Virus record (IMG/VR): IMGVR_UViG_3300028840_002618
Location: 291 to 64,290 of that record
From: a virus
Lineage: Duplodnaviria; Caudoviricetes
DNA: 64,000 nucleotides
Reading direction: 5' to 3' (one strand)
Part shown: in pieces, positions 21,326-50,429 of the stretch
Position numbering within the stretch: the stretch's first letter is position 1
How the letters are laid out: the number at the start of each line of letters is the position of its first letter
Made by a program: the position numbers and the translations under genes
The notes under the pieces: generated by a model
The model's input: only the letters and a program-made list of their open reading frames with translations
The model's database searches: none
What the model was told of the DNA's origin: nothing

Positions 21326-21375
21326 TTGACAACGGAGTGGGATTATGGTACTATGTTGGTGACAGTGAGTTGATT
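21326..21375 (+). promoter_or_regulatory. early promoter plus conserved leader (copy 1)
   Basis: TTGACA-17-TACTAT-6-GACAGTGAGTTGATT. Confidence 0.85.
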
Positions 21376-23001: not shown

Positions 23002-23052
23002 TTGACATCCACGCAAGTTTTGTGGTACTATGTCTCTGACAGTGAGTTGATT
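23002..23052 (+). promoter_or_regulatory. early promoter plus conserved leader (copy 2)
   Basis: TTGACA-18-TACTAT-6-GACAGTGAGTTGATT. Confidence 0.85.
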
Positions 23053-24203: not shown

Positions 24204-24253
24204 TTGACAGTGGGTGCATTCTATGGTACTATGTCTCTGACAGTGAGTTGATT
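24204..24253 (+). promoter_or_regulatory. early promoter plus conserved leader (copy 3)
   Basis: TTGACA-17-TACTAT-6-GACAGTGAGTTGATT. Confidence 0.85.
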
Positions 24254-25836: not shown

Positions 25837-26430
25837 ATGAAGATCTACAACGTGGAGGTCTTGGATTCCTGCCCCATATGTAAGGGACAGGAGGTCCAGG
25901 TCAGGTACGTAGGCGTGGAGGTTGATCAGGATGGGACACCGCTCCGGTCGGTCTGGAGATGTGAGGACTGTGCCGGGGAGATCTCGGGCAACTTGTTTGA
26001 CTGTGAACCGATGATCCTACACAAGGCCACTATGCCCGGGGCCATTCATGATGTTCGCAGGATCATGATGGCGTCGATCATAAAGGGGGTCCGTCTGGAG
26101 ATCACGCATCCAGAGTGCTACTATGATCTTGTCGTCTCAGTAGGTGACCGGCCTGTGTATCTCGCCAAGGTAAGATCTCGCAAGTATCACAGTCACTGGG
26201 ACTATGAGATGACAGGTCCGCAGAGGACGAGAGCGCGACACCATATGGTCCAGGTCGCCTGTTGTGGACCTGTGGGCGATTGGCATTATCTCAAAGTGTG
26301 CCGGTTGTCTCAGTTCAAGCAGATGATCCAAGAGATGTCTACATACGGGAGCTTTGGGCTTACCCACTTATCCGAGTTGGCTCTGGGCCGCGGTTGGCCC
26401 GAGTCTATTGTCAGAGAGGAGTTGCTGTAA
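25837..26430 (+). CDS. hypothetical Zn-ribbon protein
   Basis: CPIC...CEDC. Confidence 0.6.
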   Translation: MKIYNVEVLDSCPICKGQEVQVRYVGVEVDQDGTPLRSVWRCEDCAGEISGNLFDCEPMILHKATMPGAIHDVRRIMMASIIKGVRLEITHPECYYDLVVSVGDRPVYLAKVRSRKYHSHWDYEMTGPQRTRARHHMVQVACCGPVGDWHYLKVCRLSQFKQMIQEMSTYGSFGLTHLSELALGRGWPESIVREELL

Positions 26431-26882
26431 TGGTAGTAAAACTATGGAGATGCCAGGACTGTGGCAAAGAGTTTGATACGTTCATGGGAGCGCTTGACTG
26501 TGAGGTCGGGATCGATCCGATGAACTTGTCTGACGGTGACCTAGAGTCGGACAAGTGGTACACTCAGCAAGAGATCGCCGCAGAGTTGGGCAAGAGTCTG
26601 GAGGCTGTACGTCGCTGGTTCTATGGGAGGGCAAGCAAGATCTTTCCTCACCAGTTGGATCTGGCGTACCGAGAGGACAGCGACTGGGCCAAAGAGCATG
26701 GGGTCTTGGAGGGAGTTCACGGTAACGTCCGGTGGATCGTGCCAGAGAGAGATGTCCAGGCGGCAAAGGCCGCTTACGCCTCTCTCGGGCCGAGCGCCAA
26801 GGACTGGGAGTACAAAGGCCCAATCTACCACTATGACGGTGGAGGCTTTTTGTTCTACACGGAGGAGGTAGAGAATGTCTGA
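26430..26882 (+). CDS. HTH DNA-binding protein with Zn motif
   Basis: CQDC; YTQQEIAAELGKSLEAVRRW. Confidence 0.6.
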   Translation: MVVKLWRCQDCGKEFDTFMGALDCEVGIDPMNLSDGDLESDKWYTQQEIAAELGKSLEAVRRWFYGRASKIFPHQLDLAYREDSDWAKEHGVLEGVHGNVRWIVPERDVQAAKAAYASLGPSAKDWEYKGPIYHYDGGGFLFYTEEVENV

Positions 26883-27682: not shown

Positions 27683-29398
27683 ATGGGAGACAATGGATCT
27701 GGGTTCAACTGGGTAGAGCATCGAGACGAGGCAGAGAGGGCAACGTACGATCCGGATGATGACAAGATCAGGATCTATACAGACTTTGTGCCGAGGCCGA
27801 TGTTTGACGCATTCAGGGCGGCGGGCTTTTCTCGGGCGCCCAAGCAGGGATGTTTTTTCCAGGTATGGACGCCGCACAGGGAGGACATCGCTCTCGCTCT
27901 GTGTGATACCATCGAGGACGAGGATAGTACACTGCAGGAGAGGGCAGAGGAGAGATACGGACGGTTCGCCGGGTACAAGGCCAATGCCGGCAGGAGAGCG
28001 ACTGAGGCAATGGATGCAAGCCGCAAGGCCGTGGAGGGGATTCCGTTCGGACAGCCGATCCTGGTCGGTCATCACTCGGAGAAACGGCACCGGAGGGACA
28101 TCGCCAGGGCGCAGAGAGCAGCAGATCGGGCCGTAGAGGAGTTTGACCGGCAGGACTACTGGTCATGGAGAGCGGCGGGAGTTCTGAGGAACGCCGGGCG
28201 CAAGTTCAACCTGGGGACGGTGTATAGGAGGATCAAGAAACTCAAAGCACGGGTGCGAAAGTCCAAGAAAGATGCTCGGACTTCTCCCGCAGACCGGAAC
28301 AAGTATTGTCAGTCCTGGATCTGGGCAGAGAGGAGAGAGGAGAACGAGCTTTTCTGGGAGAAACACGGGCGGGGGATGCGGTATCACGACCTGGACCCAG
28401 AGGATCGGAGATCGTTCCGAGAGACGTATATCCCTGGGGCCATTCACCGCAAGCGGTTCTACCAGAGATGGATCAGGCATGACGAAGGTCTGATCGGGTA
28501 CTGGCAAAAGATCTATGACGAAGTACGGCCCGATGGTCTGGAGGGGGGAGCGGAGAACCAGAGAGAGATCAAGAAAGGGTACTGGGTTCAGAGTAAGAGG
28601 TACGGCGGTTGGGCCCAGGTGGTCAGAGTCAACAAGAACCGGGAGGGCATGATCAACTCCGTGTCCATCGACACCAAGACCTATACTCGGAGGTTCGCGA
28701 TCCGGATCTGGGATTATGAGAACATCAAAGAGATCAAGACGCCTGAGGAGTACGCTGCAATGTCTGAGGGGGAGCAGTTGGGCGAGGATCATACCGGTTT
28801 CCGTGGGGTCAAGGAAAAGGATCCGGAGAAAGAGGAGGCAAGAGAGATCGCCAAAAAGGTCTCTGAGGTAGAGCTTGAGGTCAGGTACGACAATGACTTT
28901 CATCCGACGCCTTTCCCTGTAGTGAGTAAAATGATCGACTGGTTGGATATTCCTTCCTTGTTGTCCATCTTTGGGCCGAATGGGCCTTTTCTGGAGCCGA
29001 GTAGTGGGGATGGGAGGATCATACAGGAGATCAAGATCAAGTTTCCTGACGTGACCGTGGGCTTTTTTGAGACAGACCAGAGATGTCAGGTACGGAGCGT
29101 CAATGCAGGAGGGATCTTTCTGGCAGAGGATTTTATGCAGATGCTCGAGTACGAGATCTACGCCGGGGTCATCATGAACCCACCGTACAGCAATGGTCAA
29201 TGGAGAAAGCACGTCCAGAAGGCCCACCGGATGCTCAAGCAGGGAGGTCGGCTGGTCGCATTGGTGCCGATAGGTGGGATCTATGGGGAGTTTGCAGACT
29301 GGTTGACTGGGGTAGGAGGATACCGGGGCGAGGATCTGGGGAGCGTGTTCCCAGGGACCAAGCTAGAGACGACTATCGTCGTGGTAGAGAAAGAGTAG
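27683..29398 (+). CDS. DUF3560 domain fused to N6-adenine DNA methyltransferase
   Basis: IPFGQPILVGHHSEKRHR; FHPTP, LEPSSGDG, MNPPY. Confidence 0.8.
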   Translation: MGDNGSGFNWVEHRDEAERATYDPDDDKIRIYTDFVPRPMFDAFRAAGFSRAPKQGCFFQVWTPHREDIALALCDTIEDEDSTLQERAEERYGRFAGYKANAGRRATEAMDASRKAVEGIPFGQPILVGHHSEKRHRRDIARAQRAADRAVEEFDRQDYWSWRAAGVLRNAGRKFNLGTVYRRIKKLKARVRKSKKDARTSPADRNKYCQSWIWAERREENELFWEKHGRGMRYHDLDPEDRRSFRETYIPGAIHRKRFYQRWIRHDEGLIGYWQKIYDEVRPDGLEGGAENQREIKKGYWVQSKRYGGWAQVVRVNKNREGMINSVSIDTKTYTRRFAIRIWDYENIKEIKTPEEYAAMSEGEQLGEDHTGFRGVKEKDPEKEEAREIAKKVSEVELEVRYDNDFHPTPFPVVSKMIDWLDIPSLLSIFGPNGPFLEPSSGDGRIIQEIKIKFPDVTVGFFETDQRCQVRSVNAGGIFLAEDFMQMLEYEIYAGVIMNPPYSNGQWRKHVQKAHRMLKQGGRLVALVPIGGIYGEFADWLTGVGGYRGEDLGSVFPGTKLETTIVVVEKE

Positions 29399-29613: not shown

Positions 29614-29862
29614 ATGGACGAAGGGTATAGGAGTGAGGATCTGATCGAGTCTGGAGATCTAGAAGAGTCTATCATGGAGATGAAAAAGATCCTTGAACAG
29701 AGACAGGTCGCCCGGGTGACAATGGTCGGAGTGGTTGGCGAGTTGTGCGGTAACAAGGCCGTTCTGGACCCTCAGATCTGGGGAGATGTCAGCAGGATCT
29801 ATAGGGATCAGGAGGAGATCAACGCCGCCATCAAGAGATGGCTCAAACGCCTTGGGGCTTGA
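29614..29862 (+). CDS. hypothetical protein
   Basis: operon packing. Confidence 0.55.
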   Translation: MDEGYRSEDLIESGDLEESIMEMKKILEQRQVARVTMVGVVGELCGNKAVLDPQIWGDVSRIYRDQEEINAAIKRWLKRLGA

Positions 29863-29963
29863 CTAAGATCTCTGGGGTATGGTAGAATAGAGACACTACT
29901 ATAGCAGTGAGTTCAAACAAAAAGCCACCGCGCAGGGGCTCTCCCGAGCAGTGGTTTTTTGTT
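29859..29963 (+). ncRNA. promoter-short RNA-terminator unit containing leader core CAGTGAGTT
   Basis: TTGACT-18-(TGG)TAGAAT, then ~70 nt ending in AAAAAGCCAC...GTGGTTTTTT. Confidence 0.5.
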
Positions 29964-29987: not shown

Positions 29988-30524
29988 TCAAGGGCTTGGG
30001 GGATAGATGATCGCCTCGTCTGCTTCACAGGAGGGACAGACGTCAAGTTCTCGGACGGTTGACTGCCAGACGTGGTCACAGTTGACACACCGGAAGGCGC
30101 AGACAGGGCCCTCCCGGTTCTGGAGGTAGGAGGAGGCAAACCCGAAGGATGCTCCACCTGCACAGGCGGTCAGGAGTAGGACCAGAAGGATCTGGGCCGT
30201 GAGTCGCCAGGAGTCGCGCCGGCGCGTTTGGGCCGTGGCGAGTTCTACGTTGGTCTCCGTGAGGAGTCGGCGCACGTAGGCGTCCGTGTGGGCGACCGTA
30301 CGGTTGACATCGGCCTCCCCTTCCTCCTCGATCGCGTCGACCTGGGCCTGGGCCTGGAGTGCTTGAGCCTTGGCCTCGTCAGTCTGGGAGGCTTGGATCG
30401 TTGCCCATAGCTCGAGTTCTGAGGGCTTGGAGGTCTGAGGACGTGAGGTGATCATGATCGCCGTAGAGACAACGATCAAACCCAATCCCGCAATCGCTCC
30501 CAGTAGTGCCGCTAGTTTCTGCAT
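29988..30524 (-). CDS. membrane protein with coiled coil and C-terminal Zn ribbon
   Basis: two TM segments, CVNC...CPSC; ATG after AAGGAG. Confidence 0.6.
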   Translation of the reverse strand: MQKLAALLGAIAGLGLIVVSTAIMITSRPQTSKPSELELWATIQASQTDEAKAQALQAQAQVDAIEEEGEADVNRTVAHTDAYVRRLLTETNVELATAQTRRRDSWRLTAQILLVLLLTACAGGASFGFASSYLQNREGPVCAFRCVNCDHVWQSTVRELDVCPSCEADEAIIYPPSP

Positions 30525-30546
30525 TGGAGGTCTCTCCTTTTCTGTG

Positions 30547-30632
30547 AACATGATCATGATGATCAAGATCTCCCCTATAGAGCTGGATCTTGTATATATG
30601 GGGGATCATCATGATCATGATCATGATCATGA
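30547..30632. repeat. GATC-rich palindromic element A
   Basis: CATGATCATGATGATC arms around TCCCCTATAG...TATATATGGGG. Confidence 0.8.
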
Positions 30633-30871
30633 GCGGGCCGCCTCTCGGCGGCCAGTGCTAAGAGTTTTCTGACTTTGGAACAGACCCAGCGCCATTGGTA
30701 CTTGTGCTTCTCACAGCACTGGGCGCGCCCGTTGGTCAGGACGGTGTCACAGCCAGGGTAACGGCACACTCTCTTGACGTTTCGCTCCTCATAGGCTGGA
30801 TCCTCTCCGTATTTTGTCGTGCCGTGGAGGTTGGCGAGATCGAGTTCTGGATCAGTGTAGCCGTCCGACAT
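30575..30871 (-). CDS. small Cys-cluster (Zn-finger-like) protein
   Basis: CRYPGC...CCEKH; 3' end lies in the GATC element. Confidence 0.5.
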   Translation of the reverse strand: MSDGYTDPELDLANLHGTTKYGEDPAYEERNVKRVCRYPGCDTVLTNGRAQCCEKHKYQWRWVCSKVRKLLALAAERRPAHDHDHDHDDPPYIQDPAL

Positions 30872-30965
30872 ATGGGACTTTCTATGTGATAGATTCTACT
30901 ACTCCCCCACCCCGTCTATCTCTCCAAAAGCGTCTGGGGCGGGGGAGGGGGCAGATGCAACGCTT

Positions 30966-31475
30966 TTAGTAGGGCCAGTCCGCGAACGCGTGGACGGAGA
31001 ACGGGCCGAACTCGAGATAGCCCACCCTGGAGGATAGATCGGCCTCTGGCGTGAGGTCTATCCCCCCCAGAAGGAACAGAGAGCCAGCCGTAGGATCGTA
31101 CCCCCAGGATCTCTCCAGGAGAGCCAGATCGATAGCCTCGTACGCCCACTGACTGGGAGCAAGAATCGTCTCTGCTCCGTAGAAACCTTGATCGACTATG
31201 GCTTGTATGTCGTCCGGAAACCAGGGAGAGTCTTGGCGGTTCAGGATGACGTGGACGACCCAGGTCCCGGCGCGTGTTTTGAGATCGGACAGCACACCGA
31301 CTTCTCCTTGGATGGCTTTAGCCATGTGGTAACGGGCGATCTCAGTCTGGGAGGGGGCTTCCAGTGTCTGGGCAAAGACGTCCTTTGCACATTGGGATAG
31401 GACTAGGATCAAGGTGATCGCCAGCCAGACCAGGATCGCCGCCAACGTTTGCCGTGCTCGTTGTCTCTGTCTCAT
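30966..31475 (-). CDS. SleB/Hydrolase_2-like cell wall hydrolase, membrane-anchored
   Basis: AKAIQGE...VVHVILNR.DSPWFPDDI...YDPTAGSLF. Confidence 0.7.
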   Translation of the reverse strand: MRQRQRARQTLAAILVWLAITLILVLSQCAKDVFAQTLEAPSQTEIARYHMAKAIQGEVGVLSDLKTRAGTWVVHVILNRQDSPWFPDDIQAIVDQGFYGAETILAPSQWAYEAIDLALLERSWGYDPTAGSLFLLGGIDLTPEADLSSRVGYLEFGPFSVHAFADWPY

Positions 31476-32215
31476 TCATTCTCCTCATTCTCTGGAGGAG
31501 CAACGTCGACGCTCCCCTGTAATAGGCCCTTGAACCATTCCTTGCCGCTGGCGTATAGGTAGGTGTGAGCGTTGACCGCCAGGGAGGTCTTGTATGCCAT
31601 CCGGTTTACGATCATCTGGTTGGCAAGGATCTCCCATTCGCTTCTCTTGATCTTGTAGACCTTTTCTGCCGTGTTCCCGGTGAACTGTGCTGGCAGGACG
31701 GTGCGGGTCAGGGCTCGGGCATACCTGTACCACTTTTCTGGCTCGTGGGTTCTGAGAGTCGCCATCCTCTGCCCGCCCGGGACGACAACGGTCCCCTTGA
31801 AGGTGTGGACGACTTCACCATCTGCCAAGTGGTCCTCTATAGTTGGGAAGTCCCGGGCGTTAGTGATCCCTGCCAGATGGGGATCGACTTGCCCATAGGG
31901 CAACGGATACGATGGGTTCTCTATGGCAACCTTGTAGTAGTCTCGCGATGCCTTCCTAAAGGCGTGCCCCCAGATGACCAGGAGGATCGACGCCAGGATC
32001 TCGATTGCCCACTGGAATGCCCACCACACCCAGGGCCATCCCCTCCATAGAGAGAGGAGGAGAGCCGCTACCCCCAGGAGGCAGAAGTAAGAGATCGTGC
32101 GCCCTCCCGCATATCGCACGGCAAGCCGCCAGACTGTCTTGACCTGATCGAACTTGTCCCGCTGGATCGAGACGTCGCCGGTAGACCCGTATCCAGGCTG
32201 TCTAGGTTGGGTCAT
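31472..32215 (-). CDS. membrane protein
   Basis: two N-terminal TM helices; GGAGG RBS. Confidence 0.65.
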   Translation of the reverse strand: MTQPRQPGYGSTGDVSIQRDKFDQVKTVWRLAVRYAGGRTISYFCLLGVAALLLSLWRGWPWVWWAFQWAIEILASILLVIWGHAFRKASRDYYKVAIENPSYPLPYGQVDPHLAGITNARDFPTIEDHLADGEVVHTFKGTVVVPGGQRMATLRTHEPEKWYRYARALTRTVLPAQFTGNTAEKVYKIKRSEWEILANQMIVNRMAYKTSLAVNAHTYLYASGKEWFKGLLQGSVDVAPPENEENE

Positions 32216-32351
32216 CTTTCCTCCGTAGTCGTCCCCTCTGGAGTTCTGCCTTGTACCACTTTTTGATCCTGGCGCGCCGCTCTCCCCGAGAGAGACCTTG
32301 CAGTAACGGATGTTTCTGGGGGATGCTGCGCCAGTATTGCTTGAAGGACAT
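32202..32351 (-). CDS. hypothetical 49-aa basic protein
   Basis: fills gap; MSFKQYWRSIPQKHP... Confidence 0.4.
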   Translation of the reverse strand: MSFKQYWRSIPQKHPLLQGLSRGERRARIKKWYKAELQRGRLRRKDDPT

Positions 32352-32367
32352 AACCCGCGCTGATCTT

Positions 32368-32583
32368 TTAGTGGTCATGTAGTGGCAACTCCAGTTGTTT
32401 GTTTTGGTTCGCTATGTCTCGGGCAGGATCGTATAGTGTGACGGTGATCTGGATCGTCCCGTTGGGGAGTCTGCCCGTTGTTTCATGTCTGGACGTGTAG
32501 CACTTGGCTTCGAGGTCTCCGAGACGCAGTTTCCTCAAGACGCCCTCGAGTTGTTGTATGGTCAGGCTTTGCAGTTCATCCAC
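32368..32583 (-). CDS. hypothetical protein
   Basis: overlap-coupled in operon. Confidence 0.5.
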   Translation of the reverse strand: MDELQSLTIQQLEGVLRKLRLGDLEAKCYTSRHETTGRLPNGTIQITVTLYDPARDIANQNKQLELPLHDH

Positions 32584-32866
32584 GGATCAATCCTTTCAGT
32601 CCGCTGGCGATGTCAGGAGGGAGGGGTGCGGCCTCTGAGCCTGCGCCGGTCACGTCTGGAGGAGAGACCTGCACTCCCTGTTCTCTGAGATCTTGGATCT
32701 CCTTGAGGATACGGGCCAGCATTTTCTCTTGTCGGCTCTCGCCCTGTAGGAGGTAGCGGATCGCTCGTCGGATCGACTGTGAAACGCTCCCCTCTTGAGC
32801 CTCTAGCCAATCAAGGATGTCCCGATCAGTCTCCGTGTTCAGGTATAGCGTCTTGGTTGTGTTCAT
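32576..32866 (-). CDS. ParR-like ribbon-helix-helix adaptor
   Basis: TLYLNTETDRDILDWLE...SQSIRRAIRYLL downstream of ParM. Confidence 0.65.
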   Translation of the reverse strand: MNTTKTLYLNTETDRDILDWLEAQEGSVSQSIRRAIRYLLQGESRQEKMLARILKEIQDLREQGVQVSPPDVTGAGSEAAPLPPDIASGLKGLIRG

Positions 32867-33014
32867 TCCTTCTAACATCCTCCTCGATCGCATTGATCAA
32901 GTCAAGGACGTGATCACGCAACACCTCGAGTTCATCGCGCACAATGAGCAGATCCTTGTCCATCTGGCTATGCACGGAACTGGAGGCCTTGATAGCATCT
33001 GACAATCTGCTCAT
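32826..33014 (-). CDS. small coiled-coil protein
   Basis: TAATG coupling to ParM, AAGGAG RBS. Confidence 0.55.
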   Translation of the reverse strand: MSRLSDAIKASSSVHSQMDKDLLIVRDELEVLRDHVLDLINAIEEDVRRNEHNQDAIPEHGD

Positions 33015-34012
33015 TAGATCTCTCCTTGTTTCTGGAGGTAGAGTCCGTAGCGCAGATAGCCTTGCACATTGGCAAAAACCGGATCGCGTGGCATGAAGAC
33101 CTGCCGGTGTTGGTCAAAGTGATTGACGACAAACTCACCAATGAGATGCGCCCCACCACCGGTGATCAGGATCTTGTCCAGTGCCGCCCCACCGTCCCAG
33201 TGCTGTGTCGCCGCGCTGATGATCTCTCGGGACATTGGTTCCGAGACCTCCAGGATTGTCTGGGAGATGTCATACGCTTCGCCGTGATAGGGGACTTGCC
33301 CGAGCTGGATGTCCTTGACCAGATCGTGGTCTCGCCGCTCCAGTTGGGGGAACAAGTCAGAGACACGGGCCGAGATTGCGCGCACGATGTCCCAACAGCC
33401 GGTGGGGATCGAGGTCGTGCCGTAGGACACCTCTTGTCCCCTGGAGGTCGTCAAGACGTTCGTTGTGTGAGATCCAATGTCAAGTATGCCAACGGTCCCG
33501 GTCAGCCACGCGGGATCGACTGGATCTCCGTTGCCATCAAAGGCCATCGAGCAGAGAGATCCAAAGGGCTGTGGGATCACGTATGCCTTGACCTCGTAGG
33601 TGTGGGTACGGGTCACCTCTGGGTACTCTCTGGTCACTCGATGCGTGCCCGAGAGGAGGTCTTGCACCTCTGTTTTGTCGTCAAAGTAGGCCAACGGGAG
33701 GCCAGAGATCAACGTGATGCTCTCTGAGGAAGCGCGAGAGATCTCCGTCAGGGAGGCATAGAAAAGAGACTTGTACTGGTCAGAGTAGATCCAGCGTCGA
33801 TCCTCTTGTCGGTCAATGAAACGGGATTGCGTGATCGCCGCCTCTCCGACGACTGTTCTCCCTACCCCGTTAGAGATGACGATCGCGTTGTTGGTGCCGA
33901 GGCCAAAGCGCGGGAGGTCTGGAGAGCCGGTCACGCTTGGAAAAGTGAGCTGCCCATCGCCTTCCGAGTTGATCTTTACTGCTCCGTATCCGATGTCAAG
34001 TCCTGCAAGCAT
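33014..34012 (-). CDS. parM: ParM/StbA actin-like partition ATPase
   Basis: GLDIGYGAVK, SGLP, PQPFG, LDIGSHTTN, TGGGA, ANVQG. Confidence 0.9.
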   Translation of the reverse strand: MLAGLDIGYGAVKINSEGDGQLTFPSVTGSPDLPRFGLGTNNAIVISNGVGRTVVGEAAITQSRFIDRQEDRRWIYSDQYKSLFYASLTEISRASSESITLISGLPLAYFDDKTEVQDLLSGTHRVTREYPEVTRTHTYEVKAYVIPQPFGSLCSMAFDGNGDPVDPAWLTGTVGILDIGSHTTNVLTTSRGQEVSYGTTSIPTGCWDIVRAISARVSDLFPQLERRDHDLVKDIQLGQVPYHGEAYDISQTILEVSEPMSREIISAATQHWDGGAALDKILITGGGAHLIGEFVVNHFDQHRQVFMPRDPVFANVQGYLRYGLYLQKQGEI

Positions 34013-34182
34013 GGTGCTTCCCCTTCGTTAGTTATGCCGAGTAGATCGCGAGTCCGAGATGTATTAGGGAGGACATAACCAATGACCTGCCCTTGCCGGT
34101 GATAGATGACCTCCAGGTGCTCCGTGTCCCTCAATGATAGTATTTTGGCGACTGTGAGGTCTCCGACGTGGATCTGATCCAT
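33976..34182 (-). CDS. small Phd/YefM-like protein (possible autoregulator)
   Basis: first gene after promoter; LEVIYHRQGQVIGYVLP. Confidence 0.4.
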   Translation of the reverse strand: MDQIHVGDLTVAKILSLRDTEHLEVIYHRQGQVIGYVLPNTSRTRDLLGITNEGEAPCLQDLTSDTEQ

Positions 34183-34210
34183 AGGTACGTCCTCCTGTTT
34201 GTGTAGGTCC

Positions 34211-34240
34211 ATTGTACCATACTCGGGCAATTCTTGTCAA
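34211..34240 (-). promoter_or_regulatory. sigma70-type promoter for par cassette
   Basis: TTGACA-18-(TGG)TACAAT. Confidence 0.75.
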
Positions 34241-34273
34241 GGGGAGAATTACAGGAATTAGGACAGTTGCCTC

Positions 34274-34323
34274 TTGACAAATGTTTGGGATCATGGTACG
34301 ATATGCCTGACAATGAGTTGATC
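34274..34323 (+). promoter_or_regulatory. promoter plus conserved leader (copy 4, A variant)
   Basis: TTGACA-17-TACGAT-6-GACAATGAGTTGATC. Confidence 0.85.
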
Positions 34324-34342
34324 ATGATAGAGGAGGATCGAA

Positions 34343-34897
34343 ATGAACATGCGCACAGTCAACAGAATCAAGCAGGATCTGAGGTCGGCCCTGGGCAATT
34401 TGGAGTGGTTGCGGGAGGGGGCAGAGAGGGAGGATCGTCCTGGTGCGTGGTCGAACAGCGTGACCACGTCCGAGATGCACATCCGCGAGACTCGTCAAGA
34501 GTTGATGCGGATCGCCGGGGCCAATGCACGTTGGTCCGCATTAGCCAGTCAGACGCCCCAGATCGAGATATTCACAAGTATCGCGGACAGCGCACTCGAG
34601 TTGGTTGACACAATCGACGCCGCTTTGGATGGTAAGGAATGGGAGATCGCGCATACACGTCTCTCATACCCCGCAGAGCTGATCGCCTGGATCATGAAGG
34701 AAAAGATCGCCAGGGACCCGCAGCACGCAGTGAACGTCCTGAATCTCTCGGGAGGTCGGGCCGAGAGCTGGTCCAATCGTCGTTTTGCGGTCTGGGCCAA
34801 GACGTACCGTTGGTATCGCCGCAAGGGTCACAAAAAGGCTGAGGCGGTTCAGTATGCCCGCAGCTACGCAAACAAGGTGATGCTCGGGCAGGACTAG
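34343..34897 (+). CDS. hypothetical helical protein
   Basis: GAGGAGG RBS. Confidence 0.7.
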   Translation: MNMRTVNRIKQDLRSALGNLEWLREGAEREDRPGAWSNSVTTSEMHIRETRQELMRIAGANARWSALASQTPQIEIFTSIADSALELVDTIDAALDGKEWEIAHTRLSYPAELIAWIMKEKIARDPQHAVNVLNLSGGRAESWSNRRFAVWAKTYRWYRRKGHKKAEAVQYARSYANKVMLGQD

Positions 34898-34956
34898 TGG
34901 GTAGGAGGGGAGAGGGGATCGGCCTCTCTCCCCTGTTCAAGTATAGAGAGGGGATC

Positions 34957-35151
34957 ATGTCTGAGAGAGGACGCAAGATCTTTTTGGGGATCATGGTAGT
35001 GCTTTCGCTTTTCCTGTTGGGTTGTAGTATACTCGGTGACTGGACCGACATGGATCGGTCCAGGTGGGGTTGGGGCGGCGAGTACGGCGACGCGCCGCGA
35101 ACCATCGACGGTAACCCGACCATGACACCCATTAACCCTGAATTGCAATGA
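34957..35151 (+). CDS. small lipoprotein
   Basis: MSERGRKIFLGIMVVLSLFLLG-C lipobox. Confidence 0.6.
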   Translation: MSERGRKIFLGIMVVLSLFLLGCSILGDWTDMDRSRWGWGGEYGDAPRTIDGNPTMTPINPELQ

Positions 35152-35152
35152 A

Positions 35153-35296
35153 CTGTCTGCCCTCTCTGAGAGGGGTCCAGGTGAATTGAACGAGATGACC
35201 GCCCCTGGCTTATCCGTCCTCTAACGGAGACGCCACGGCCTCCTCTCTATCAACTCATTGTCAGCCTGGTCCTCTCTCAGAGAGGGCAGACGTTTT
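35153..35296 (+). ncRNA. long-hairpin RNA with antisense to conserved early leaders and anti-SD
   Basis: ~30-bp closing stem GTCTGCCCTCTCTGAGAG.../...CTCTCAGAGAGGGCAGAC; contains CCTCCTCTCT-ATCAACTCATTGTCAG. Confidence 0.7.
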
Positions 35297-35309
35297 TCTG
35301 GAGGTCGTC

Positions 35310-35507
35310 ATGTTCTGGATCAAGGTAGTTGTGAGCATCGTGATAGGTTGTACTGTAGGTGTGATCGGAGACATCTTTTTCCGAGTCTTGATCAAGGTCT
35401 CTCCTCGACTGGTACCGGAGAGGATCAGAGTAGAGTATGGATGTTTCTGCCATTATCAGGAGCCATACGGTTGGGTAGTGATGGGATCATGTCCCTTTCA
35501 TGACTAG
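35310..35507 (+). CDS. small membrane protein
   Basis: GGAGG RBS, N-terminal TM, C-terminal Cys/His. Confidence 0.55.
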   Translation: MFWIKVVVSIVIGCTVGVIGDIFFRVLIKVSPRLVPERIRVEYGCFCHYQEPYGWVVMGSCPFHD

Positions 35508-35515
35508 GGGGATCG

Positions 35516-35686
35516 ATGTCGGGCAAGTGGATCTGTCTTTTTGTTGGTCTGGTTCTCGGGCTGTTTCTGGGAACAAATCTGGGGATCGTTTTGCTCTGCG
35601 TGATGCAGTGTGCATCGCGCAAGGTAGAGAGGAGAGAGTCATGCCAAAGTATGGAGGTCGGACAGGGCGTTTCTTGGAGGGACTAA
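35516..35686 (+). CDS. small single-TM protein (56 aa)
   Basis: MSGKWICLFVGLVLGLFLGTNLGIVLLC; below ORF-track cutoff. Confidence 0.5.
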   Translation: MSGKWICLFVGLVLGLFLGTNLGIVLLCVMQCASRKVERRESCQSMEVGQGVSWRD

Positions 35687-35955
35687 AGAAACTCTGCAAC
35701 CAGGAGGGGGTACATCTAGTCCTTTATGACGCCGTTGACGAGGGCTTTGTTCTGGAGGAGATGCCAGAAGGCCAGAGAGTCAGAGAGTTCTACAAGTCAT
35801 ACGTGCACGGAGAGGGAGTTGTGATAGGGGAACGGCTAGAGGACGTCGAGAGGGAAAAGAACCCCATCTGCTTGCACTATGACTGCGAGTTGTTCAAAGA
35901 TGGACAAGGGGAGATCGTTTGCGCCCTTTGTCAGTATAGGGCACCCAACCGGTAG
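35641..35955 (+). CDS. hypothetical protein
   Basis: GAGGAG RBS before ATG 35641. Confidence 0.55.
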   Translation: MPKYGGRTGRFLEGLKKLCNQEGVHLVLYDAVDEGFVLEEMPEGQRVREFYKSYVHGEGVVIGERLEDVEREKNPICLHYDCELFKDGQGEIVCALCQYRAPNR

Positions 35956-35990
35956 TGATCTGAGGGGGTCAAAAACGGTACAGGTAGCTC

Positions 35991-36037
35991 TTGACTGGCT
36001 CTTGTGGGTATGGTACGATCAGAAACACGACAATGAG
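35991..36037 (+). promoter_or_regulatory. promoter with truncated leader motif
   Basis: TTGACT-17-TACGAT-9-GACAATGAG. Confidence 0.7.
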
Positions 36038-36051
36038 GGAGAGAGGGTCCA

Positions 36052-36396
36052 GTGTCTTGTGTCTATTTGTTGCATTTTAGTCGGGCTGTGGGTAGGTCTC
36101 GGCATCCCGGGAACGGGTATGAGGCTCATGCTCGGCACTATGTTGGGTTCACGACTAATCTGGAAAAAAGGATCAAAGCGCACCAAGCAGGTTGGGGAGG
36201 TCACCTGTGCCGGGTCGCTGTGGAGCAGGGGATAGAGATCGAGGTCGCGCACGTCTGGGAGGGAGCAGGACGCGACTTTGAGCGGCACCTGAAAACATCA
36301 TACAAGAACGCGCCAAAAGTCTGCCCGTTGTGCTCCGAGTCTGGAGAGCGCCGGGCAGTTTCATTATGGGAGAGGTACAGGAGGGATCATGGGTAG
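36052..36396 (+). CDS. GIY-YIG nuclease
   Basis: VYLLHF...HYVGFTTNLEKRIKAH...ERHLK. Confidence 0.8.
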   Translation: MSCVYLLHFSRAVGRSRHPGNGYEAHARHYVGFTTNLEKRIKAHQAGWGGHLCRVAVEQGIEIEVAHVWEGAGRDFERHLKTSYKNAPKVCPLCSESGERRAVSLWERYRRDHG

Positions 36397-37111
36397 AGAA
36401 CAAGAAGACAAAAAGATCATCAACTTTGTGCCAATTGACCCAGAGACACACACCCAGTTGGTAGAGTTGGCCAATCAGCAGGGGATCAAGCTCAATGACT
36501 TTCTGGGGCTGTTGGCAGACGAGTGGGCTTTTACCTGGAAACCCCCAGAGGACAAGAGGCGGGAGCGCGCCCTGTTCTGGAACTGGGTAGAGTTGACCAG
36601 AAGGAAACGGATGCAAGACATGGTGTACAGTATGGTCAGCATCTACCAGCAGTTGGGAGAGTCTGAGGAGATGGCAGACATCATAGAGGAGCAGTGCAAG
36701 GTCGCCGGGATCTCACCGTCTGATCTACAGATGATACACGCCGAGGTCTCAAGTGATCCGTTGTCGTCCATCATCGCTCAGAGTAGGGGAGGAACAAAGT
36801 TCTCTCAGTGCTTGGCGTGGTTGAGCTCCATTTTTCGTCAGGTAGGACCCGAGATCGCCGTTAGGGATCTCAGGCAGTTGGCAAAGGCCGAAGGCTTTGC
36901 TTGGGCGATGGTCAACAAGGCCAAAGGCCAGATCAGGGATGATCCAGAAACACAGGTTGATCTTGTGTCTGAAAAGAGAGGCCATTACTGGGTCTGGATC
37001 ATGTTGGACAGGGAGTCACAGAAACCGATAGAGAGGGGTCAAGATGCACACGGAGAGCGAGTACAAAACAGCACGCAAGGGAACGACAAGCAGCATAGTG
37101 AGAGTGGCTGA
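36389..37111 (+). CDS. putative DNA-binding protein (N-terminal RHH-like, C-terminal winged-helix-like)
   Basis: VPIDPETHTQLVELANQQGIKLNDFL; AKAEGFAWAMVNKAK...YWVW. Confidence 0.5.
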   Translation: MGREQEDKKIINFVPIDPETHTQLVELANQQGIKLNDFLGLLADEWAFTWKPPEDKRRERALFWNWVELTRRKRMQDMVYSMVSIYQQLGESEEMADIIEEQCKVAGISPSDLQMIHAEVSSDPLSSIIAQSRGGTKFSQCLAWLSSIFRQVGPEIAVRDLRQLAKAEGFAWAMVNKAKGQIRDDPETQVDLVSEKRGHYWVWIMLDRESQKPIERGQDAHGERVQNSTQGNDKQHSESG

Positions 37112-37526
37112 GCATAAGCACCATATGGACGATGGGAGGATCTTGTACGAATACGAGGTCTCTGAGGGAACGAACCAAAAGAGGATTGACATCGTCTATC
37201 TGACGCCTGGACAGGCAGCAGATGTCATCACGATTCTGGGGCATTGGTTGACAGGGGGCTGGAAACTGTATCGTGTCCAGATCCCAGAGGTCACAGAATG
37301 GGCTTACCATTATGCTCCGTCGCCAGGGAGCGCCATCGAGTTGCATCTGGCTGACCACGACATGTGTGGGTATGACAAAGCCTTGTGTGAGGAGGTAGAC
37401 GCACAGATCAATGTCTGGGGCTTTGGCTGTATTCTCGGAAAAGAGAACCGGGAGGGACATTCGGTCCAGGAGTATGCAGAGGAGTTGGACAAACATCATG
37501 TCTGGGAGGCTCCCGATGGATCCTAG
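37044..37526 (+). CDS. hypothetical protein (start uncertain)
   Basis: fills operon gap. Confidence 0.55.
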   Translation: MHTESEYKTARKGTTSSIVRVAEHKHHMDDGRILYEYEVSEGTNQKRIDIVYLTPGQAADVITILGHWLTGGWKLYRVQIPEVTEWAYHYAPSPGSAIELHLADHDMCGYDKALCEEVDAQINVWGFGCILGKENREGHSVQEYAEELDKHHVWEAPDGS

Positions 37527-39288
37527 AGAGTATGGGCTACCGGATGGACATGAGGAGTTCAGGGAGGGACAGGAGGAGTCGCTGATCTGGGCAATGGAGC
37601 AAGAGGGCGTGGGGATCTTGGAGGCTCCGACCGGGTCAGGAAAAACAGCCATCGCCGCAGGGACCGCAAGCAAGAAACGGGTTGTGGCGTTGTGTCGGAC
37701 TCGAGTCCTCCAGGTCGCTAACTATGCCCAAGAATATGGGTTCGATCCGTTGTTTGGCAAGGACAACTATCCCTGTATCCACCCCGAGGCCGAGGTCGGG
37801 GCGACGTGTGGGCAGTGCCTCTACCCTCAAAAGATGTCAGAGTGTGACTATTATCACGAATGCACCTACATCGCCCAGAGGGATCTTGTTCGCGGGAGTA
37901 GAAAAGCCTCGCTCAACTATGCCTACTATCTGAGGTCTCAGTACTTCAAGGACAATCGGCCCGACGTGTTGTTTCTGGACGAGGGTCACCAGTTGTCTGA
38001 ACTGATCCTGGGTTGGGCAGGATGCACGGTAGACGAGCACAAGAGGGTCAAGTGGTATCTACCCGACTTTCCCATCCTGGAGGCTCAGAGGTCGTCAAGC
38101 TTGACGGCACCGCGGTCGGCGTTTGGCTCGTTCTCAGTAGTGACTCTGCCAGAGCCAGAGGATCCGATAGGTAAGGTCAAGGACTGGCTCACGGAGAGCA
38201 TCAAGATCTTGCGCCGGCAGGTCGTGACGTATCAACAGTTGGCTCCGTTCAGTGAGGCATCAAGAACCAAGGCCCAAGACGGAGGTCTTTTACAGTACAA
38301 ATTACAGACGACTCTCACGACTATTTGTATGAACGAGGACGCATGGTACATCGAGTCTGGGCCGACCGCCTTGCAGAGGCTGGATAGGATGTCTGGAGAG
38401 TACAAGCCCGCGCCGGGGATCGTGATCAAGCCGTTGACCGCGAGATACCATTTTCCGCACTTCTTTTTGAGTGAGGAGAGCGCGACGGTGATCATGTCGG
38501 CTACCATTGGGAATGCCCAGACGTTCTCCGAGGAGTTGGGGATCAGAGTCTACCAGGATCGAGTTATGGAGAATCCTTACCCCCCTGCTCGTCGGCCTGT
38601 GTATGTCTTGGATGCACCGGGGATGGGGTACAAGTCTGGCTTGTCTCACTACAAGAAACAGGCCGAAGTGATCGCCCGGGCCATTCTGGACTGTCCTGCA
38701 GAGTGGTCTGGTATCATCCACGTCACCCGTAAGAGTGAGGCGCCCAAGTTGCGTGACCGGCTGAAAAAGATGGGTCTGCGAAAAAGGGTCTGGAGTCCAC
38801 CGCTAGAGCAAAAACATTGCCGGTTGGATTGTAGCCTCTGCCCGTATCAGGAGGAGGGCGGTTGTAGCAAGCAGGGCCGATGGTTCGGGACGAATGAACA
38901 GGCCGCGCTCTGGACCGTGCGGAAAAAGATGGTACCGGGATCGATCATGGTCTGCTGGCAGTTCCGAGAAGGGTATGACGGATCAGGGATGATCGAGGGA
39001 GTCTACTATCCCGAGTTGGATGAAAAGATCTGCATCGTTGCCAAGACGCCGTTTCCGAATCTAGGGAATCCATACGAGAAGGCACGGCAACGGTTCTCGG
39101 GCAAGTTCTACCTCCAGAGAACGGCATGGGATCTGGAACAGGCCCTTGGTCGGACTCGGAGAGGGAGAGAGATTGACTATGATCTACCGGGGGATCGTCG
39201 TGGTCTGGTAGCGATCGCTGATGGGAATTATGTGCGAGTCCAAAAATATCTATCAAAGGGGTTGCGAGAGGCCATCACAGAGTACTAG
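37516..39288 (+). CDS. DinG/XPD-like SF2 helicase
   Basis: FREGQ, APTGSGKT, Fe-S Cys cluster, DEGH, MSAT, QALGRTRR. Confidence 0.85.
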   Translation: MDPREYGLPDGHEEFREGQEESLIWAMEQEGVGILEAPTGSGKTAIAAGTASKKRVVALCRTRVLQVANYAQEYGFDPLFGKDNYPCIHPEAEVGATCGQCLYPQKMSECDYYHECTYIAQRDLVRGSRKASLNYAYYLRSQYFKDNRPDVLFLDEGHQLSELILGWAGCTVDEHKRVKWYLPDFPILEAQRSSSLTAPRSAFGSFSVVTLPEPEDPIGKVKDWLTESIKILRRQVVTYQQLAPFSEASRTKAQDGGLLQYKLQTTLTTICMNEDAWYIESGPTALQRLDRMSGEYKPAPGIVIKPLTARYHFPHFFLSEESATVIMSATIGNAQTFSEELGIRVYQDRVMENPYPPARRPVYVLDAPGMGYKSGLSHYKKQAEVIARAILDCPAEWSGIIHVTRKSEAPKLRDRLKKMGLRKRVWSPPLEQKHCRLDCSLCPYQEEGGCSKQGRWFGTNEQAALWTVRKKMVPGSIMVCWQFREGYDGSGMIEGVYYPELDEKICIVAKTPFPNLGNPYEKARQRFSGKFYLQRTAWDLEQALGRTRRGREIDYDLPGDRRGLVAIADGNYVRVQKYLSKGLREAITEY

Positions 39289-39296
39289 GAGGAAAC

Positions 39297-40076
39297 ATGC
39301 CTCTGATTGAACCAACGTTGTTTGGTACAAGGAACAAAGTACAGATTGCCATAGAGAGATTGCGAACATTTTGCCCGCCAGAAGGGTATTACCTCGCGTT
39401 CTCAGGAGGTAAGGACTCAGTAACAATCAAGGCCTTGGCTGATATGGCAGAAATAAAGTATGACGCTCACTACAACGTTACCACAATAGACCCTCCCGAG
39501 GTCACAAGGTTCATCCGAGATCAACATCCCGATGTTGTCTGGGAGAGACCCAAAAGGTCCATGTTCCGTTTGATCATCATGAAACAGTGGCCTCCTCTGA
39601 GGCAATGGCGATATTGTTGTGAGAGATTAAAAGAGAGAGGAGGAAAAGGACGCAAAGTACTAACCGGTATCAGGCACCAGGAGAGCGGGCAGAGAAAAAA
39701 CCGGCAGATGGTAGAGACGTGTTACAGTGATCCCACCAAGACATTCATCCACCCAATTATTGACTGGTCAGACAGAGATGTTTGGGAGTTCATCAAAACA
39801 GAGGATCTCCCCTACTGCTCATTGTATGATGAAGGATTCCATAGGGTCGGCTGTATCTTGTGTCCGTATGAAGGTAACGCACAGAATATCCAAAAGCAGA
39901 TCGAACGGTGGCCTCAATTTGTAAAAGCGTACATTAGGACATTTGATCGGCTGATCAAGTACAGAGATAGTCTAGGAAAAGAGACCACCTTCAAAACTGG
40001 ACAAGAGCTTTTTGACTGGTGGATCGATAGAGGACACCGTAAAAAAGATCCTCAGGAGGCGCGACTTTTTGAGTGA
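39297..40076 (+). CDS. PAPS reductase family (PP-loop) protein
   Basis: AFSGGKDS, RYCCERLK, GIRHQES, PIIDW, RVGCILCP. Confidence 0.88.
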   Translation: MPLIEPTLFGTRNKVQIAIERLRTFCPPEGYYLAFSGGKDSVTIKALADMAEIKYDAHYNVTTIDPPEVTRFIRDQHPDVVWERPKRSMFRLIIMKQWPPLRQWRYCCERLKERGGKGRKVLTGIRHQESGQRKNRQMVETCYSDPTKTFIHPIIDWSDRDVWEFIKTEDLPYCSLYDEGFHRVGCILCPYEGNAQNIQKQIERWPQFVKAYIRTFDRLIKYRDSLGKETTFKTGQELFDWWIDRGHRKKDPQEARLFE

Positions 40077-40266: not shown

Positions 40267-41112
40267 ATGAATAAACTGAAAGTCTTATGGACGTGTCCCA
40301 TTTGCAGGAGGGAGACAGAGAGCAGTGTCAGTATAGAGGAGGCCAATCAACAGATCGCCGCAGAATGCCCAGAATGTCGTCATGTGATGATCTACGGAGA
40401 GTGTACGCACATCTTGGGGGTTGTCAGGGAGAACATCACCCAGAGTTCCAAGTCCGAGGTCTGGCTGACTCCTCCGTCAGTCTGGGAGCCAGCACGCGCC
40501 CTGATGGGAGGGACCATAGACCTCGACCCTTGTGCAGAGAGCCTGGGGAGTTGTACAGGATACTCCAGTGAGACCCCTAGCGGAACAGAGTTTGACTGTG
40601 ACATTGGAGACGGTCGGACATGTGAGGAGTGCCAGTACGGGCCATATGGGGAGGGGGATCGATGGAACGTCCCAGCGCGCATCCACTGGACCAAGGCCGA
40701 TGACGCTCTGAGCCAGCCTACCTGGATGGTAGGAGATGAACCGATAGACCTGTTCATGAATCCACCGTACAACAAGAGCAGAATCCAGAACAAGTTTGTT
40801 GATCGGTTTCTGCACGAGTTGTCTCTGGGGAGGATAGGCAGAGCGGTGATCTTGTTGGCATCGAGGACGGACACAAAGTGGTACCAGAAGCTGTACAGGT
40901 ATCCTCGGTGCCATGTGAGAGGTCGGCTAAAATTCCTCAAGCCTGGACCCAACGGGCCAGTGGAGAGAGGTCCTGCCACGTTCCCCAGTGTGATCTTTGG
41001 AGTGGGGATCGATCCGTCTCTATTCTGGGGAGCATACCACCATCTCGGCGGGATCTACATACCCTATGTCAGGGGACGGTACGCAGATGGGCAGTTGGTC
41101 TGGTCATCATGA
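40267..41112 (+). CDS. phage N6-adenine DNA methyltransferase (Dam_2-like) with Zn ribbon
   Basis: WLTP, IDLDPC, FMNPPY, SRTDTKWY, RGRLKF. Confidence 0.85.
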   Translation: MNKLKVLWTCPICRRETESSVSIEEANQQIAAECPECRHVMIYGECTHILGVVRENITQSSKSEVWLTPPSVWEPARALMGGTIDLDPCAESLGSCTGYSSETPSGTEFDCDIGDGRTCEECQYGPYGEGDRWNVPARIHWTKADDALSQPTWMVGDEPIDLFMNPPYNKSRIQNKFVDRFLHELSLGRIGRAVILLASRTDTKWYQKLYRYPRCHVRGRLKFLKPGPNGPVERGPATFPSVIFGVGIDPSLFWGAYHHLGGIYIPYVRGRYADGQLVWSS

Positions 41113-45388: not shown

Positions 45389-45448
45389 TTGACAAACGTT
45401 GTTGTTTATGGTACTATGTTCGTGACAATGAGTTGAATTGAGTTGATC
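45389..45448 (+). promoter_or_regulatory. promoter plus conserved leader (copy 5, A variant, core duplicated)
   Basis: TTGACA-17-TACTAT-6-GACAATGAGTTGAATTGAGTTGATC. Confidence 0.85.
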
Positions 45449-49269: not shown

Positions 49270-49320
49270 TTGACAGGTTGGGCGTTTTTGTGGTATTATG
49301 GTTGTGACAGTGAGTTGATT
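49270..49320 (+). promoter_or_regulatory. promoter plus conserved leader (copy 6)
   Basis: TTGACA-18-TATTAT-6-GACAGTGAGTTGATT. Confidence 0.85.
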
Positions 49321-50266: not shown

Positions 50267-50276
50267 GGATCCAGTC

Positions 50277-50361
50277 AACATGTTCATGATCATGATGATC
50301 TCCCCTATAGGAGGTCGTCTATATATGGGGGATCATCATGATCATCATGATCATGATGATC
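50277..50361. repeat. GATC-rich palindromic element B
   Basis: near copy of 30547-30632. Confidence 0.8.
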
Positions 50362-50378: not shown

Positions 50379-50429
50379 TTGACAGGGGCCGGTGTTTTGT
50401 GGTACTATTGTCGTGACAGTGAGTTGATT
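50379..50429 (+). promoter_or_regulatory. promoter plus conserved leader (copy 7)
   Basis: TTGACA-18-TACTAT-6-GACAGTGAGTTGATT. Confidence 0.85.

Follow-up and report, generated by a model that had tools for sequence, protein, structure and literature searches.

Early gene control in phages is usually explained by repressor proteins or by changes of sigma factor or RNA polymerase. Control by RNA is known chiefly from the c4 RNA of phages P1 and P7 and the CI RNA of satellite phage P4, each acting on a single operon; the two belong to one Rfam family ("C4 antisense RNA"). The c4 RNA is an antisense RNA cut from the operon that it controls. The CI RNA of P4 is likewise an antisense RNA from the operon that it controls, with targets in the leader of that operon, according to a published account (PMC4825925). 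Here we describe a 144-nucleotide (nt) intergenic hairpin element in a 64,000-nt stretch of DNA from an uncultured tailed phage (the window: bases 291-64290 of the complete 64,290-base pair (bp) IMG/VR virus record IMGVR_UViG_3300028840_002618, which has direct terminal repeats). One arm of the hairpin is complementary to a leader tag shared by seven promoters and to their Shine-Dalgarno (SD) sequences. The explanation that we favor on balance, though with reserve, is a toehold-type antisense RNA encoded within one of these operons that would act on the shared leader and ribosome-binding site (RBS), and the hairpin probably regulates all of the tagged early messages by base-pairing.

The locus resembles P4 CI and P1 c4 in that the candidate RNA is encoded inside an operon and its complementary site lies in the leader of the same operon (35249-35264 versus 34307-34322), an arrangement also found in a relative, phage G001. 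P4 CI and P1 c4 are also made from a longer transcript, and they replace or supplement a protein repressor. Unlike these RNAs, which act on two sites flanking the RNA, the hairpin would have as its targets the 5′ ends of seven dispersed operons together with their SD sequences, and it is a 144-nt terminator-closed structure with its seed in a bulge. Because no terminator lies between leader and first gene, control by translation or stability is likelier here than premature termination. By the Rfam scan, which a first, sequence-only reading of this DNA had proposed, the element is not a member of the C4 family: the window gave no match at gathering score, and C4 itself gave none at E values up to 10. 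At that relaxed threshold, the region matched only snaR-A (12 bits) and its G001 counterpart only miRNA-precursor models (15-27 bits), all far below their cut-offs.

Partial parallels exist outside phages. In Staphylococcus aureus, an anti-SD in the 3′-untranslated region (UTR) of the icaR mRNA pairs with the 5′-UTR of the same message. The element described here similarly carries a C/U-rich anti-SD far downstream in a message, able to pair with the SD at the 5′ end; unlike icaR, its arm also has a 16-nt anti-leader common to six other operons, and it lies between genes rather than in a 3′-UTR. RsaE/RoxS and RNAIII are small RNAs of low-GC Gram-positive bacteria with C-rich loops. The hairpin likewise exposes a CCUC loop that could contact GGAG ribosome-binding sites, but the Rfam scan showed no homology to these RNAs, and its specificity would come from the anti-leader and not from the loop alone. 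Among phage sequence tags, the start-associated sequences of cluster K mycobacteriophages are reportedly conserved asymmetric tags of ∼13 nt that stand before many genes, at the RBS, with no established reader. The tag in the window is comparable in its conservation, asymmetry, length and occurrence at many phage genes, but it lies at the transcript 5′ end of seven operons and has an identified antisense partner. A full-text literature search found no description of a multi-operon anti-leader RNA, which is weak evidence of absence. If the antisense reading is correct, an RNA that reads a tag at the 5′ end of all early messages would be a compact form of regulon control, in which immunity specificity could arise by co-evolution of seed and tag. 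It would also supply a ready-made orthogonal tag-and-antisense pair for synthetic biology, and it may shed light on further phage tags, associated with starts or leaders, that have lacked an explanation.

A shared leader tag and its reverse copy in a hairpin

The motif GACARTGAGTTGA has eight exact matches in the window, where 0.23 are expected by chance and where none of 100 shuffles reached eight copies. Seven are on the plus strand (at 21361, 23038, 24239, 34309, 45424, 49306 and 50415) and one is on the minus strand (35250-35262); the count was the same in the whole 64,290-bp record. All seven plus-strand copies start exactly 6 nt past a near-consensus promoter with an extended -10 box (TTGACA-17/18-TGGTAnnAT). 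With transcription assumed to start at the usual 7 nt after the -10 box, the motif would form the first 13-14 bases of seven transcripts. As RNA, the tag reads GACARUGAGUUGAU, in which the sole variable core position is A or G and is faced by U in the antisense. A strict promoter scan of the genome returned 18 promoters, of which seven have the full tag and one (35991) has a partial, shifted tag; the syntenic promoter in G001 likewise has a shifted leader. Leader copy 4, which heads the hairpin-containing operon, matches the anti-leader at 16 of 16 positions, and the other copies carry one or two mismatches over this 16-mer. Within the transcribed 14 nt, they depart from copy 4 only by a G:U wobble or by one terminal base.

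The reverse copy lies in the hairpin, 930 nt into the operon driven from tagged promoter 4 (Table 1). As RNA, the 144-nt element has a minimum free energy of -83.2 kcal/mol (z = -9.29), and none of 200 shuffled sequences folded as well. A closing stem of 22 bp (P1), a 1-nt bulge and 6 bp (P2), ∼28 bp in total, encloses short interrupted helices that lead to an apical hairpin. An anti-SD run, CCTCCTCTCT (35239-35248), lies directly 5′ of the anti-leader. Part of the anti-leader is exposed in an open bulge and the remainder sits in weak mismatched helices; opening all 26 nt of anti-SD and anti-leader would cost 13.4 kcal/mol. CTCCTCT is rare on the plus strand, with three occurrences in the 30-kb early region (0.1 per kb) and likewise three in the early region of G001.

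The 3′ side of the element looks like an intrinsic terminator, with the G+C-rich 22-bp P1 directly before UUUUU, and a terminator scan also marked a local hairpin (35269-35287) with the T run. It is atypical as a terminator, since it encloses 140 nt of conserved sequence and is followed by two genes without a promoter of their own before 35991. Because of these two genes, termination at the U-tract would have to be leaky, or the RNA processed. The sequence-only reading had described this ∼140-nt fold with its long closing stem, the perfect 16-nt reverse complement of 34307-34322 with an adjoining anti-SD, seven leaders that vary at one core position opposite a U, and a single reverse-orientation copy for which it saw no minus-strand promoter; each of these descriptions was borne out, and we too found no minus-strand promoter near the element.

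Table 1. Features of the hairpin, the tagged promoters and selected proteins (window numbering; ORF, open reading frame; HTH, helix-turn-helix; energies in kcal/mol, predicted)
Feature	Position	Strand	Remarks
Whole hairpin element with U-tract	35153..35297	+	between 64-amino-acid (aa) lipoprotein-like ORF (34957-35151) and 65-aa membrane-protein ORF (35310-35507)
P1 5′ strand, 22-bp closing stem	35154..35175	+	
P2 5′ strand, 6 bp	35177..35182	+	
5′ arm, degenerate sense copy of leader and SD (GAAUUGAACGAGAUGA)	35183..35198	+	imperfect pairing with anti-leader/anti-SD arm (P3, P4)
Apical 5-bp hairpin UCCGU-CCUCUA-ACGGA	35213..35228	+	CCUC in loop 35218-35223; loop fully unpaired, opening energy 0.0
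Anti-SD run CCUCCUCUCU	35239..35248	+	partly paired in P4/P5; opening energy 6.1
Anti-leader AUCAACUCAUUGUCAG	35249..35264	+	16-mer, exact reverse complement of 34307-34322
7-nt single-stranded 3′ bulge AUUGUCA, putative seed/toehold	35257..35263	+	complements first leader bases; unpaired probability 0.7-0.9; opening energy 0.38
P2 3′ strand	35264..35269	+	
P1 3′ strand	35271..35292	+	
U-tract (UUUUU) after P1, terminator-like	35293..35297	+	
Promoter and leader copy 1	21326..21373	+	motif 21361-21373; net pairing -14.1
Promoter and leader copy 2	23002..23050	+	net pairing -15.0
Promoter and leader copy 3	24204..24251	+	net pairing -14.1
Promoter and leader copy 4	34274..34322	+	heads hairpin-containing operon; 16/16 complementary; net pairing -11.9
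Promoter and leader copy 5	45389..45436	+	upstream of 687-aa helicase gene; net pairing -13.6
Promoter and leader copy 6	49270..49318	+	net pairing -12.7
Promoter and leader copy 7	50379..50427	+	net pairing -14.9
Promoter with partial, 3-nt-shifted leader core GACAATGAG (36029-36037)	35991..36037	+	pairing only -3.8
150-aa early protein	26430-26882	+	sub-threshold HTH: Sigma70_r4 E 0.0016, HTH_3 E 5e-4; 46% identical in G001
ParM/actin-like partition protein	33014-34012	-	PF17989 at 5e-20; phrog_691 at 4e-45; divergent from tagged promoter 4
DarA_C (anti-restriction) domain protein	22095-22691		near helicase and methyltransferase
GIY-YIG nuclease	36052-36396		near helicase and methyltransferase
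PAPS-reductase-like protein	39297-40076		near helicase and methyltransferase

Three other ideas about the element were set aside. A minus-strand mini-gene consisting of leader, SD and a 6-8-codon frame was ruled out, as no minus-strand promoter was found. A dedicated plus-strand promoter is unproven; all that the window offers is ATGACA-16-TGCAAT, whose -10 hexamer has G as its second base. The ideas of a telomere-resolution site and of a single-strand promoter were dropped, because the inverted repeat is imperfect and no -35/-10 pair lies inside it.

Further short units in the two phages bear sequences related to the tag. An ORF-less promoter-to-terminator unit at 29859-29963 contains a close match to the leader core, AGCAGTGAGTTCA, and G001 has AGCAGTGAGCAC, its own version of the leader, in a terminator loop after another promoter (∼52113-52220 of the reverse-complemented record), at a place that is not syntenic. 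These units might act as a decoy or sponge, or as an additional site for the reader of the tag; only weak pairing with the hairpin is predicted for them (-5.1 and -5.8 kcal/mol, respectively). The heptamer CAACTTA occurs exactly three times in the window, at 10799 (+), 49091 (+) and 51347 (-), each time 5-6 nt after a strong promoter with an extended -10 box. Each of these promoters is predicted to drive a short, terminated, ORF-less transcript, and the units at 10765 and 49057 resemble paralogues. CAACUUA could pair with UGAGUUG of the leader, one of the pairs being G:U.

Conservation in a diverged relative

The window encodes a 625-aa helicase with one 62%-identical homologue, on G001, a complete IMG/VR phage on a 61,310-bp contig (the numbering L009 is used for the G001 hairpin locus). 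The two genomes are collinear over 26.4-51.3 kb of the window, with protein identities of 28-71%. A blastn comparison of 34000-36400 with G001 returned only two coding stretches, the flanking DNA being mostly undetectable. The layout of the locus is the same in G001: two divergent promoters, a gene homologous to the 184-aa gene (34343-34897 in the window; 38% identity by MAFFT and 37% by tblastn; 37-44% for the adjacent proteins), a small ORF resembling that of a lipoprotein and, immediately behind this ORF, a hairpin. This syntenic hairpin (L009 6754-6880) is 129 nt long and folds at -62.5 kcal/mol (z = -7.75), and its architecture is the same helix by helix, with UUCUUUU as its U-tract.

Stem pairs were counted helix by helix with a script anchored at the innermost pair; MAFFT alignments of the hairpins disagreed with the structure. 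Among the 18 aligned pairs of P1, seven were changed on both sides, nine were unchanged, one was changed on one side and one was broken. P2 had four of six aligned pairs changed on both sides and two unchanged, which brings the closing stem to 11 pairs changed on both sides and 11 unchanged among 24. The apical block (35204-35245) was identical in 33 of 41 columns of a hand alignment (∼80%), and the CCUC loop was kept. At the same position as the bulge of the window, G001 has the bulge ACUGUCA, with an unpaired probability of ∼0.99, which complements the 5′ end of the G001 leader.

The five tagged leaders of G001 have the sequence TGACAGTGAG with CAAAC, CATAC or TAAAC after it; the distance to the -10 box is 6 nt in four of them, and one is shifted. 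The corresponding hairpin arm, CUCCUCUG-AGCUCACUGUCA, consists of an anti-SD and the complement of TGACAGTGAGC, so that an anti-SD run adjoins the anti-leader in both phages. The anti-leader tracks the leader of each phage (TGAGTTGAT in the window and TGAGC in G001), the tags first differing by T in the window versus C in G001. Leader polymorphisms inside the predicted duplex are tolerated by wobble, with A/G opposite U in the window and C/U opposite G in G001. The sequence-only reading had expected leader and antisense to co-vary among relatives, and in this one relative the anti-leader does follow its own leader and the stems are compensated. Because the diverged relative has a syntenic counterpart with compensatory stems, an exposed seed and an anti-leader matched to its own leader, the comparison supports the view that the element is a conserved structured feature whose arm of anti-leader and anti-SD is under selection.

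Searches for further relatives left the tag and hairpin confined, so far, to these two genomes. Homologues of the helicase number 160 proteins at E ≤ 1e-10, those of the window and of G001 included. Patterns of promoter plus leader had no match in viral, metagenome and genome contig sets, the apical motif had none in metagenome contigs, and peptide searches with the 184-aa and 625-aa proteins gave none. Alignment-profile searches recovered only G001 from viral contigs (two alignments) and nothing from genome contigs (one alignment), and 50,697 phage records gave no blastn match. When both hairpins were compared by blastn-short and nhmmer with 80 loci (1.2 Mb) of helicase relatives, only the copy of G001 itself and 14-nt chance matches were returned. 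Helicase relatives at 36-42% identity bear other promoter-proximal motifs.

Minor observations at these loci concern promoters and a second hairpin. G001 has two promoters without the full tag, at 25970 (+) and 52076 (-) of the reverse-complemented record, that are followed almost directly after the -10 box by GAGCATAC, the 3′ half of its leader; this conserved half lies outside the antisense cover and may have a separate role. Directly after the 184-aa gene, both phages have a conserved G+C-rich hairpin without a U-tract (window 34908-34935; L009 ∼6270-6301), which may be a processing or stability element. In L019, a more distant phage with a 41%-identical helicase, two promoters (11687-11740 and 17571-17620) are followed by an identical palindrome that spans -10 and +1 (GATACATTATCAATGTATC). 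By its sequence, this palindrome has the form of a classical dimeric-repressor operator at the position of the RNA tag in the window.

Predicted pairing and competing explanations

In an accessibility-corrected scan, the pairing score was the sum of the hybrid energy and the energies needed to open the two partners. The window RNA was predicted to pair with seven of seven tagged leaders at -11.9 to -15.0 kcal/mol, compared with 0 to -6.0 kcal/mol for 11 other promoter leaders. Random 55-mers (n = 883) averaged -2.0 kcal/mol (standard deviation, 2.5), and three were at or below -11.8 kcal/mol in a sample that includes the hairpin's own opposite-strand complement. The separation recurred in G001, where the five tagged leaders scored -15.6 to -20.3 kcal/mol, eight other leaders 0 to -7.6 kcal/mol, and 367 random 55-mers no lower than -9.9 kcal/mol. 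All five G001 interactions were of two blocks (tag and SD) with the spacer looped out, and the best interaction also covered the SD in three of the seven window leaders and in all five G001 leaders. Plain duplex folding of the whole hairpin was uninformative, as random 60-mers averaged -40 kcal/mol. In both phages, the candidate RNA has what is expected of a trans-acting base-pairing small RNA, namely an accessible seed that is complementary to the targets and conserved with them.

We propose the following sequence of events for the antisense RNA. The hairpin would be transcribed from the promoter at 34274 within the operon message and would accumulate as the early operon is read. Part of the transcripts at least would end at the U-tract that follows the 28-bp stem, and cleavage of this long stem might release the RNA. 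The open 7-nt bulge could then serve as a toehold that captures the 5′ end of a tagged message, after which pairing would extend through the remaining anti-leader bases into the anti-SD, with the spacer looped out and the weaker, mismatched 5′ arm displaced. The 5′ end and the RBS of the first gene in each tagged operon would thereby be covered, both on the message that carries the hairpin (in cis) and on the six others (in trans). Early messages would then, most likely, be translated less and/or become less stable, which would amount to negative feedback or early shut-off.

The sequence-only reading had suggested that this RNA may silence all dispersed early operons in trans by antisense pairing, as an immunity or shut-off circuit made of RNA only. 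Its expectation that the hairpin would pair with the tagged leaders held in both phages, in that these leaders were separated from the other promoter leaders, and the part that stands is a conserved and selective predicted pairing. Repression, immunity and control by RNA alone are more conjectural, the last in view of a 150-aa early protein with a weak HTH and of a G001 leader conservation that exceeds the antisense cover; likewise, the intact hairpin is not predicted to pair in a simple nested way. We regard the widest form of the idea as tentative and rather doubtful: that a toehold-gated hairpin switches all early operons post-transcriptionally, as timer, feedback or immunity device, without a classical repressor, and that it exemplifies anti-leader RNAs of a class that recurs in uncultured phages and has not been described.

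Several observations weigh against the antisense account. The sequencing runs that carry the stretch are all DNA; we infer from the sequence that the hairpin is transcribed, as we do its processing, its pairing in vivo, its action in trans and the sign of its effect. The minus strand folds equally well or better (-87.8 kcal/mol), and fold energy cannot choose the strand; the plus strand is favored by the operon direction and by the U-tract of the two phages, which in the window is on that strand only. Upstream of the hairpin, the phages share no convincing promoter dedicated to it, G001 having TGGTAGACT and the window nothing comparable. Nested co-folding gave no binding (∼0 kcal/mol for all seven leaders), because the site is enclosed by P1/P2; pairing would thus call for either a contact of the toehold or pseudoknot type or earlier processing of the RNA, and we read the zero energy as the topological limit of the method and of an intact hairpin, not as absence of pairing. 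Although cognate pairs were stronger than cross pairs by a few kcal/mol, cross pairs were substantial (-9.3 to -10.7 kcal/mol when the window RNA is paired with G001 leaders and -8.2 to -15.1 kcal/mol when the G001 RNA is paired with window leaders). The covariation rests on two genomes and comes without statistics. The exact 6-nt distance to the -10 box is not required of an RNA target and hints at a constraint at the level of DNA or protein. Conservation of the G001 leader extends over ∼21 nt (GGCTCT+TGACAGTGAGCAWAC in three to four of five copies) versus 11 nt of antisense cover and includes bases upstream of the probable start, which again hints at a DNA or protein factor. Finally, a DNA operator would produce the same forward/reverse co-variation of leader and reverse copy.

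Such an operator, the main rival explanation, would be a 13-16-bp asymmetric site for a monomeric repressor of the L5 type that blocks RNA polymerase at +1, with the reverse copy as an extra operator within a terminator hairpin. The repressor of the cluster A mycobacteriophage L5 is described as controlling many units through operator and stoperator sites, asymmetric 13-mers present in many copies and oriented with transcription, and its binding to them as a monomer is established (PMC9283540). The tag is likewise an asymmetric 13-mer in many copies, seven of which have the orientation of transcription, and its spacing to the -10 box (constant in all seven window copies and in four of five in G001) and the leader conservation past the antisense footprint would fit a protein reader. 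Phages with related helicases (36-42% identity) also carry protein-type motifs at this place, such as the palindrome of L019, and the conserved 150-aa early protein, the only candidate DNA-binding regulator seen, has a sub-threshold HTH. Unlike the tag, the L5 sites are protein-bound DNA and many are intergenic, away from promoters, whereas seven of the eight copies here lie at +1 and the eighth is reversed in an RNA hairpin; moreover, the same source reports that an L5 site loses function when reversed (PMC9283540). No CI-type, HTH repressor or integrase domain was present at the curated Pfam cut-off in 60 proteins scanned, in agreement with the sequence-only reading, which had recognized no CI-type repressor. 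Nor was an L5-type repressor, which combines an N-terminal HTH with another DNA-binding domain, detected in these proteins; a novel repressor may nonetheless exist. A six-frame scan of the whole record matched PF01381 below threshold only, and a search of the 150-aa protein against the PDB at E values up to 1 gave only chance-level rows and no relative. An operator also leaves unexplained the anti-SD beside the reverse copy, the seed in an open bulge, the sense-like 5′ arm and the conserved apical CCUC hairpin. We consider it unlikely, but antisense RNA and protein-DNA mechanisms could coexist.

Equally improbable, in our judgment, is a purely structural role, in which the element is a leaky terminator and/or a double-strand RNase site that splits the operon, and the complementarity is the relic of an inverted duplication of the leader cassette. 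The perfect 22-bp stem followed by UUUUU and the resemblance of the 5′ arm to a decayed sense leader are in keeping with it, as is the other conserved hairpin, without a U-tract, after the previous gene in both phages, by which structured intergenic RNAs would be common here. A relic, however, would not keep 11-16 nt of exact complementarity to its own leader, an anti-SD and ∼80% identity in the apical block, and a functionless one is unlikely because the neighboring DNA has diverged beyond blastn detection and the adjacent proteins to 37-44% identity.

A role in cis only, in which the arm pairs just with the 5′ leader and SD of its own ∼950-nt message and, in the manner of icaR, autoregulates the 184-aa gene, appears less probable still. 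The full 16-nt match is found in copy 4 alone, the element sits in the copy-4 operon in both phages, and known phage antisense RNAs act in their own operon, as P4 CI does (PMC4825925). The other six leaders nevertheless scored -12.7 to -15.0 kcal/mol, no weaker than copy 4 at -11.9 kcal/mol, their departures within the transcribed 14 nt are confined to wobble or a terminal base, and all five G001 leaders match equally. Least probable of all, and very much so, is a positive regulator whose pairing at the extreme 5′ end shields early messages from 5′-dependent decay, as FasX acts on ska by protecting the 5′ end of the message: the seed does pair with the very first transcribed bases, but the SD is covered as well in three of seven best interactions in the window and five of five in G001, which points to a block of translation.

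Genome setting and minor observations

PHROGs matches on the minus strand identified a terminase large subunit, a portal and a head protease/major head protein, as expected of a tailed phage. The early/replication block, on the plus strand at ∼21.4-51.3 kb, encodes two helicases, a PAPS-reductase-like protein, methyltransferases and a GIY-YIG protein. A short minus-strand block (29.8-34.0 kb) ends in the ParM-like partition gene. No tyrosine integrase (PF00589) was found in a six-frame scan of the whole record, and together with the ParM-like gene this hints at an episomal carrier state. The whole window contains no tRNAs or Rfam families at gathering score. The DarA_C, GIY-YIG and PAPS-reductase-like proteins probably have DNA-modification or anti-defense functions.

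Of five sequencing runs for 30001-40000 of the window, all on record as DNA, three contain the stretch; these are sediment or seawater metagenomes. These three runs (X1-X3) represent the same strain, with three single-letter differences and three one-base insertions or deletions, none of which is in the leader motifs or the hairpin; one pair of the differences falls within the -10 box of promoter 2. X1 and X2 also contain low-depth contigs (2.5-7.7 versus ∼120) that are 68-87% identical to 27701-28072, 29635-29846 and 35293-35440, and therefore a diverged relative is present in the same samples.

Two inverted repeats packed with GATC, of ∼85 bp each, lie 20 kb apart (30545-30629 and 50275-50356), and the window encodes a Dam-like methyltransferase (40267-41112). 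A weak match to ribosome modulation factor, below threshold (E = 0.0044; 17.5 bits versus a cut-off of 27.9), was seen for the gene that comes first after tagged promoter 3 (24277-24480, +).

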